Positions 1-676 of a stretch of DNA of 676 nucleotides are shown one piece after another; position 1 is the stretch's first letter, and the number at the start of each line of letters is the position of its first letter. Position numbers and translations under genes: made by a program. Source of the stretch: Escherichia coli (lineage in GTDB: Bacteria > Pseudomonadota > Gammaproteobacteria > Enterobacterales > Enterobacteriaceae); assembly GCF_003334765.1 (NCBI RefSeq), contig NZ_QOWT01000109.1, one strand, 5' to 3'. The notes beneath the pieces were generated by a model, which worked only from the letters and a program-made list of their open reading frames with translations, had not been told where the DNA came from and made no database searches.

Positions 1-133
1 ACTTCCGTCCCAGCCTTGCCAGATGTTGTCTCAGATTCAGATTATGTCGCTCAATGCGCTGAGTGTAACGCTTGCTGATAACGTGCAGCTTTCCCTTCAG
101 GCGTGATTCATACAGCGGCCAGCCATCCGTCAT
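1..133 (-). pseudogene. insB: Remainder of the insB reading frame downstream of the premature TAG (C-terminal InsB-homologous region, continuing off-window)
   Basis: In the same frame immediately after the TAG, codons 133..2 translate to [44 protein letters not shown]. This is collinear with the C-terminal region of canonical InsB and has no further stops up to the window edge. Confidence 0.75.
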
Positions 134-427
134 CTATACCACGACCTCAAAGGCCGACAGCAGGCTCAGAAGACGTTCCAGTGTGGCCAGAGTGCGTTCA
201 CCGAAGACGTGCGCCACAACCGTCCTCCGTATCCTGTCATACGCGTAAAACAGCCAGCGCTGACGTGATTTAGCACCGACGTAGCCCCACTGTTCGTCCA
301 TTTCAGCGCAGACAATCACATCACTGCCCGGTTGTATGCGCGAGGTTACCGACTGCGGCCTGAGTTTTTTAAGTGACGTAAAACCGTGTTGAGGCCAACG
401 CCCATAATGCGTGCACTGGCGCGACAT
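134..427 (-). CDS. insB: IS1 InsB (insB' frame), N-terminal 97 codons only, ended by a premature in-frame TAG
   Basis: The ORF-track translation ...[58 protein letters not shown]...[10 protein letters not shown]...[11 protein letters not shown] matches IS1 InsB over its N-terminal part. It is in the -1 frame relative to insA, as expected for InsAB' frameshifting. It stops at TAG (134..136) where the canonical protein, as I recall it, continues ...[12 protein letters not shown]... Confidence 0.8.
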
Positions 428-621
428 CCGACGCCATTCATGGCCATATCAATGATTTTCTGGTGCGTACCGGGCTGAGAGGCGGTGTAAGTGAACTGTA
501 GTTGCCATGTTTTACGGCAATGAGAGCAGAGATAGCGCTGATGTCCGGCAGTGCTTTTGCCGTTACGCACCACGCCTTCAGTAGCGGAGCAGGAAGGACA
601 TCTGATGGAAATGGAAGCCAC
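346..621 (-). CDS. insA: IS1 InsA, the transposition inhibitor / IR-binding repressor and N-terminal part of the InsAB' transposase
   Basis: A 91-aa ORF with a GTG start at 621..619 and a TAA stop at 348..346. Its translation [91 protein letters not shown] matches IS1 InsA, including the CxxC...CxxC zinc-finger-like motif (CPSC ... CSHC). An AAGG Shine-Dalgarno-like motif sits upstream at 632..629. Confidence 0.9.
364..370 (-). promoter_or_regulatory. A6C (AAAAAAC) programmed -1 ribosomal frameshift motif at the insA/insB' overlap
   Basis: The minus strand reads CAC TTA AAA AAC TCA GGC in the insA frame (H L K N S...), while the insB' frame reads CTT AAA AAA CTC (L K K L...). This is the known IS1 slippery site that produces the InsAB' fusion, and it is intact here. 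Confidence 0.8.
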
Positions 622-628
622 GCAAGCA

Positions 629-647
629 CCTTAAAATCACCATCATA
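629..647 (-). promoter_or_regulatory. insA translation-initiation region with candidate promoter -10 inside or adjacent to the IRL
   Basis: On the minus strand, AAGG (632..629) lies about 8 nt upstream of the GTG start and is a plausible RBS. TATGAT (647..642) is a -10-like hexamer. The IS1 insA promoter is known to overlap the IRL, but the exact -35 cannot be assigned confidently from sequence alone. Confidence 0.35.
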
Positions 648-653
648 CACTAA

Positions 654-676
654 ATCAGTAAGTTGGCAGCATTACC
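654..676 (-). repeat. IS1 left terminal inverted repeat (IRL), about 23 bp, with one mismatch to the canonical IRL as recalled (GGTAATG versus GGTGATG)
   Basis: The minus-strand sequence at 676..654 is GGTAATGCTGCCAACTTACTGAT. The canonical IS1 end as I recall it is GGTGATGCTGCCAACTTACTGAT. The partner IRR is not in the window, so the inverted-repeat pairing cannot be confirmed directly. Confidence 0.8.

Follow-up and report, generated by a model that had tools for sequence, protein, structure and literature searches.

A 676-bp stretch from an Escherichia coli-type genome, very probably the left part of a non-autonomous IS1F element with a likely home at mdtM/brnT

The stretch of DNA analysed here, 676 nucleotides in its full length and called the window below, is very probably the left 676 bp of a 768-bp IS1F element from an Escherichia coli-type genome, a non-autonomous copy whose locus is most likely the chromosomal mdtM/brnT site. 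The copy is defective, and it should neither be tallied among active transposase genes nor be taken to signal resistance cargo. An earlier reading made from the letters of the window without database searches, hereafter the sequence-only reading, had recognised an IS1 end and had left its context entirely to the flanks; to this our analysis adds the defective state, the probable chromosomal home, and that no sign of resistance cargo was seen.

Identity and anatomy of the element

The minus strand of the window corresponds to IS1 positions 1-676 of a 768-bp element, with 100% identity over all 676 bases as revealed by megablast against complete E. coli chromosomes. The search covered 5,426 complete E. 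coli genomes, 4,971 of which gave a match, many of them at 100% over all 676 bases (E = 0). The collections compared were limited to these genomes, the PLSDB plasmids and the GenBank phages. No 100% match was found in the GenBank phage collection, where the best, at 99.6%, is a prophage-like record annotated IS1F; a phage origin of the window is not indicated by a best match of this level.

Full-length copies identical to the window are 768 bp long, with the transposase CDS at IS 56-753, the right terminal inverted repeat (IRR) at IS 746-768 and a right end reading ...GTAAGTTGGAGTCATTACC. Window position 1 equals IS 676 and falls within this CDS, which agrees with its earlier placement inside insB; moreover the IRR, which had been expected about 92 bp beyond position 1, ends just there in the full-length copies: exactly 92 bp including the IRR are absent from the window, and the element ends at IS 768. 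The tip of the IS was likewise put correctly at window 676: the left terminal inverted repeat (IRL) occupies 676-654 on the minus strand, and a comparison of copies shows that the flanks of different loci diverge directly outside this base. Of the 23 positions of the IRL, 20 pair with the IRR of those full-length copies that are identical to the window. The features recognised in the window are as follows.

654..676, minus strand: IRL (IS 1-23), reading GGTAATGCTGCCAACTTACTGAT on the minus strand, with window 676 as the outermost base
642..669, minus strand: sigma-70-like promoter match CTGCCA-16-TATGAT, overlapping the IRL (consensus scan, 9/12 matches)
346..621, minus strand: insA, intact, 91 codons with a GTG start, encoding the InsA repressor and IR-binding protein (list of open reading frames and Pfam)
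364..370, minus strand: A6C slippery heptamer AAAAAAC, intact, within TTAAAAAACTC (window 372-362, IS 305-315; motif search)
137..367, minus strand: insB' frame from the frameshift site to the stop, the N-terminal half of DDE_Tnp_IS1, mostly also contained in a 97-aa open reading frame at 427..134
176..176, minus strand: synonymous marker IS 501 = A (GAA, Glu149), which together with the TAG defines the sub-lineage of the window
134..136, minus strand: TAG stop at InsAB' codon 163 (Trp in intact copies), a single G-to-A change at IS 542 (window 135)
1..133, minus strand: remainder of insB after the stop, codons 164-207, which the stop takes out of InsAB' translation and whose conceptual translation aligns with intact InsAB'

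The promoter-like match falls where the IS1 promoter is expected, and published knowledge of IS1 suggests that it functions as such. In InsA, Pfam places Zn_ribbon_InsA at aa 1-36 and HTH_Tnp_IS1 at aa 43-86, the E-values for insA being 2.7e-19 (PF03811) and 2.9e-27 (PF12759). With the predicted -1 shift at A6C, conceptual translation gives a continuous InsAB' frame that is colinear with the intact Shigella protein. This read-through protein (the insA frame, the -1 shift at A6C, and the stop written as X) was used as the profile query, and it reaches 242.9 bits against a cut-off of 100 for NCBIfam NF033558 'IS1 family transposase'; DDE_Tnp_IS1 (PF03400) is found at aa 102-207 with E = 8.2e-57, covering model positions 1-106 of 131, and the window edge cuts insB 77 nt ahead of the normal TAA stop, the CDS of full copies ending at IS 753. 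Those hallmarks of the IS1 family that fall within the window are therefore all seen, namely the IRL, an insA with zinc ribbon and HTH, the A6C site and a DDE domain of the IS1 type. An Rfam scan of the window with E up to 1 gave no match to a structured-RNA family.

Relatives of the copy and its premature stop

On the basis of sequence comparison the subtype is assigned to IS1F, the window being nearly identical to the K-12 IS1F and about 90% identical to consensus IS1; in fact some of the identical copies bear the PGAP name 'IS1-like element IS1F family transposase'. The IS1F of K-12 MG1655 (insA7 b4294 / insB7 b4576, beside fecI) has the same length of 768 bp, the same IRL, IRR and A6C site, and the same TAG at codon 163 as the window copy, and differs from it by 3 mismatches in 676, where the window has A156, C210 and A501 and K-12 has C, A and G. 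At the protein level, InsA has H34 and T52 in the window but P34 and K52 in K-12 (insA7 L006:6528-6803, compared with window 621-346). The H34P change in K-12 InsA falls in the zinc-ribbon domain, and even the insA of the K-12 copy may be decaying.

An IS1 of S. boydii Sb227 on pSB4_227 (transposase WP_094106546.1) is 99.7% identical to the window and agrees with it in its ends and in the whole of InsA; however, it has TGG (Trp163) and GAG (Glu149) where the window has TAG and GAA, and it is annotated as an intact transposase and is presumably autonomous. Two base differences make up the whole distance between them, one at IS 542 (G, against A in the window) and the synonymous one at IS 501. 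Consensus IS1, as represented by IS1A and IS1E of K-12 and by phage P1, shares with the window element the family, the length, the gene layout and the frameshift mechanism, the nucleotide identity between the window and the phage P1 IS1 being 89.6-90.1%. Two 2025 papers on IS1 give 90.5% identity (PMC12903888) and 73 mismatches (PMC12428005) between IS1F and consensus IS1, and describe the IR sequences of IS1F as distinct from those of the consensus (PMC12903888). Consensus IS1 makes a target duplication of 8-9 bp (PMC12428005); elements of this type are autonomous, and IS1A and IS1E account for nearly all the IS1 transposition seen in K-12 (PMC12428005).

The TAG sits in the middle of DDE_Tnp_IS1, immediately before a conserved MTDGW block, and costs InsAB' the C-terminal 70 of its 232 residues; insA and the slippery site are unaffected by it. 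The uninterrupted transposase frame that marks an autonomous IS is consequently broken here at codon 163 of 232. RefSeq (PGAP) annotates the identical copies as pseudogenes ('programmed frameshift; internal stop'), and insB7 (b4576) of K-12, likewise annotated as a pseudogene, has this same base at IS 542. A natural read-through of the TAG was considered, and nothing points to it. It might still be asked whether an error of sequencing or assembly produced the TAG and hides an intact autonomous Shigella/E. coli IS1 variant with TGG, as that variant is only two bases off the window and one error could in principle make the stop. This is exceedingly improbable: the exact 61-mer around the TAG recurs in 2,840 independent records of complete E. 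coli genomes, K-12 MG1655 included, the window links the TAG to a second diagnostic base, A501, the exact 61-mer with both being common to 634 records of complete E. coli genomes, and the window as a whole is 100% identical to many finished chromosomes. Such counts, as well as those of junctions below, are per record (best place), from exact 61-mers or from junction queries at a coverage of at least 80%, and are not a census of every copy.

Probable locus and the question of resistance cargo

Since the source record comprises 676 bases in total, the flank, the target-site duplication and the neighbouring gene all lie outside the window, and as regards its own flanks the context is indeed as unreadable as the sequence-only reading had stated. 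That verdict does not extend to the bases inside, as A501 together with the TAG ties the window to the sub-lineage of 634 records, which are mostly of the mdtM/brnT site. The two edges of the window also merit attention. One edge, at window 676, is the tip of the IS, and the other is the last base before IS 677, a position occupied by C in the copies from the mdtM site, from Shigella and from plasmids and by T in those at hyi/gcl and fecI. For example in KL53, two copies of the window type agree base for base as far as IS 676, and the next base, at 677, is different. The stretch that they share is 678 nt long rather than 676, as two flank bases (CG) match by chance, so that KL53 fits the window at the inner edge and overshoots it by two bases at the outer one, and can serve as an illustration only, not as an exact reproduction. 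In the public collection, 12,113 blocks contain the product of the truncated insB frame, 2,063 of them only on contigs shorter than 2 kb. The window end is thus probably that of a contig limited by a repeat in assembly. If the window is such a collapsed repeat, the source genome has at least two copies of this kind and no single context is to be expected; the extension by 1 kb that had been proposed would be impossible within this record, and the assembly graph or the reads would be needed instead.

The main site of such copies in E. coli chromosomes has the order mdtM / dienelactone-hydrolase remnant / IS1 / brnT-brnA / yjiA. Six of the nine inspected chromosomal matches at 100% are found there (six of ten when all the inspected fully identical copies in complete genomes are taken), a copy at this site is also present in KL53 and in further assemblies of the public collection, and of the 11 copies inspected at this junction, 10 match the window exactly over 1-676. 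The dienelactone-hydrolase pseudogene, which lacks its N-terminus, abuts the IRL, and no target duplication is seen, the sequence being TGGAATCCG on the left and CGACAGCGA on the right. With junction queries of 200 nt of flank and 100 nt of IS at a coverage of at least 80%, the mdtM-side junction was detected in 663 and the brnT-side junction in 1,113 of the 5,426 complete E. coli genomes. That the brnT side gives the higher number is explained by a second allelic form of the copy, 767 bp long, in which one base is deleted at IS 465 and further substitutions are present, the TAG being kept (L023, L024, L025:2834-3600).

Several observations were made around this site. A defective copy of the IS1F type is joined through its IRR to the brnT/brnA toxin-antitoxin pair by yjiA (L001:3904-5528; also L003, L004, L022:38244-39868 and L028-L030), and its IRL side has the truncated dienelactone-hydrolase gene in 663 genomes. 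The IRL-side flanks of the second allelic form differ from one another, and in L023 the IRL borders on an inverted and truncated yjiJ, pointing to an inversion or deletion mediated by IS1. Altogether the mdtM/brnT copy is an old and decaying one, the IRL side of which has been rearranged repeatedly. In K-12 the mdtM-yjiA interval is the site of the hsd/mcr/mrr restriction cluster; in KL53 genes of the McrB/McrC family and for a phosphorothioated-DNA restriction endonuclease are found near nanC and fim (L022:415-4711), upstream of the IS1 at mdtM/brnT by about 34 kb, and the restriction genes of KL53 are therefore placed elsewhere than the K-12 cluster.

Besides the main site, copies related to the window were found at several other loci. 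At hyi / IS1 / gcl in KL53 (L002), a window-identical copy forms a clean insertion with the 8-bp duplication GAGAAACG, an exact junction that is present in only two complete E. coli genomes. In strain C9 (L026), another window-identical copy splits a fimbrial subunit gene near folK, with the 8-bp duplication CAGATTTA; direct repeats of 8-9 bp had been anticipated for the element, and these two identical copies elsewhere bear them out at 8 bp. On the IncY plasmid pHeN100_02, a copy with 100% identity lies beside an autotransporter gene and has no duplication. As a side observation, CFSAN051542 (L027:2501-3268) has the same joint of IS1 to gcl as KL53 (L002:4001-4768), but its IRL directly adjoins allW and a target duplication is absent; hyi and glxR were apparently lost there by an IS1-adjacent deletion.

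The copies beside fecI all bear the TAG and have no target duplication. This locus was rejected as the origin of the window, for all eight inspected copies differ from it at 1-7 positions within 1-676. Their left flank is the same in all strains; on the right, K-12 continues with GACCATG... on the yjhU side (L006:6473-7240), and other strains with TCCTCCCG..., followed by IS3 remnants and an ariR-like gene (L008/L009/L010:2991-3758), so that the region right of the fecI-side IS1F is rearranged. Moreover in ENA ERZ27273564, contig_58 carries two IS1 copies about 29 kb apart (L019, L020), one with the fecI-side left flank, a foreign right end and 48 differences in its 3' part, the other with a decarboxylase/permease left flank and the usual right flank of the fec locus; the pair looks like a flank exchange via recombination between the two IS1 copies.

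Copies identical over 1-676 thus exist at four or more loci, so that any one of these, or a site not among them, could be the source of the window. Judging from the complete genomes compared, the window copy would most likely be the chromosomal one at mdtM / brnT/brnA-yjiA, with a probability that we place between somewhat and well above even; otherwise it could be one of the rarer secondary insertions, at hyi/gcl, in the fimbrial gene or on the IncY plasmid, or a copy at a new site. The assignment is a statistical one throughout.

Consensus-type IS1 forms the arms of resistance transposons. It was considered whether the window represents an active IS1 that bounds a composite transposon as one of its arms, or that lies next to resistance or virulence cargo carried by a plasmid or an island. 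IS1 is certainly abundant on plasmids, as at least 5,000 PLSDB records match the window, 3,374 of these being conjugative, and the copy on pHeN100_02 is 100% identical; but it is the only plasmid record with such identity among the at least 5,000 that match, the next best, at 99.7%, are of the intact Shigella type, and among the best 5,000 plasmid matches 2,454 records lie in the identity band of 90-95%. Furthermore the transposase frame is broken in the window copy, neither a resistance gene nor a second IS1 was found within 2.5-4 kb at any inspected locus with an identical copy, and no other IS1 end was found in a 50-kb region of KL53 around the mdtM-site copy. An active or cargo-flanking element is on these grounds highly improbable, and the common association of IS1 with resistance or virulence cargo, which the sequence-only reading had mentioned, is not borne out for the IS1F subtype, where a single plasmid with 100% identity was met and no inspected context showed a resistance gene or a second IS1 close by.

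Mobility in trans and a possible regulatory role

As a non-autonomous element, the copy would still make InsA, which represses and binds the ends, and a fusion truncated to 162 aa, which would not be an active transposase. As the ends are intact in the identical full-length copies, it may be movable by InsAB' supplied in trans from another IS1, and it could also be a substrate for IS1-associated deletions and for recombination between IS copies. Copies with the same stop in fact occupy several loci, and at two of these a perfect 8-bp duplication flanks the element. The stop is common to these copies and to the diverged IS1F of K-12, and it would therefore predate their spread; the clean insertions would thus have been catalysed by the transposase of another IS1, and for instance KL53 also carries an intact transposase gene of the IS1B type. 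From this we infer that stop-bearing copies are mobilised in trans in nature. Formally, the TAG could also have been acquired at these sites after insertion, through gene conversion. For the sites without duplication, the variable IRL-side flanks and the allW-gcl derivative, an IS1-associated adjacent deletion or inter-copy recombination fits.

Mobilisation in trans is in line with what the two 2025 papers report on this subtype. The K-12 IS1F shows no detectable transposition alone (PMC12428005), and when InsAB' was over-produced in a strain without IS1A and IS1E, 44% of the new insertions came from IS1F (PMC12903888). Both papers ascribe the immobility of IS1F to amino-acid substitutions (PMC12428005, PMC12903888), and neither a term search of PMC12428005 nor the passages of PMC12903888 that deal with IS1F revealed any reference to a stop codon in this element. 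The stop is the simplest explanation of the immobility, and it is already implicit in the pseudogene annotation of RefSeq.

A more far-reaching view would be that the stop-bearing IS1F copies are kept as inhibitors in trans, through InsA and possibly the 162-aa InsAB', and damp IS1 as a domesticated regulator. InsA is described as the IS1 repressor (PMC12428005), the window retains an intact insA, promoter-like site and IRL, and the stop allele has been kept at two old sites, on the fecI side in about half and on the brnT side in about a fifth of complete genomes. Nevertheless, the copy at the brnT site decays further in some strains by the 1-bp deletion at IS 465 and extra substitutions, the insA of the K-12 IS1F has the non-synonymous changes H34P and T52K, and the substitutions are too few for a selection test; the pattern looks like neutral decay, and the vertical inheritance of a harmless relic explains the persistence equally well. 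We therefore hold domestication as a regulator to be very unlikely. It is also unlikely that the stop-bearing IS1F is a successful non-autonomous parasite of active IS1 copies, spread to several loci in wild E. coli via InsAB' in trans, whose insA and truncated, end-binding InsAB' would damp IS1 across the genome. If that were true, the seemingly dead IS1F copies would be genome-wide regulators of IS1 instead of inert relics.

To sum up, nothing in the element itself is new, for IS1F with its broken insB is annotated in the reference genome and its trans-mobilisation in the laboratory is already known. What the analysis illustrates is that even a short contig consisting of an IS only still holds bases diagnostic of its lineage, which permit a probabilistic placement, here next to the brnTA toxin-antitoxin genes, as a relic in the chromosome. 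Moreover, copies that carry the stop have been cleanly inserted at new sites in natural isolates, which agrees with the laboratory mobilisation of IS1F in trans reported in 2025.
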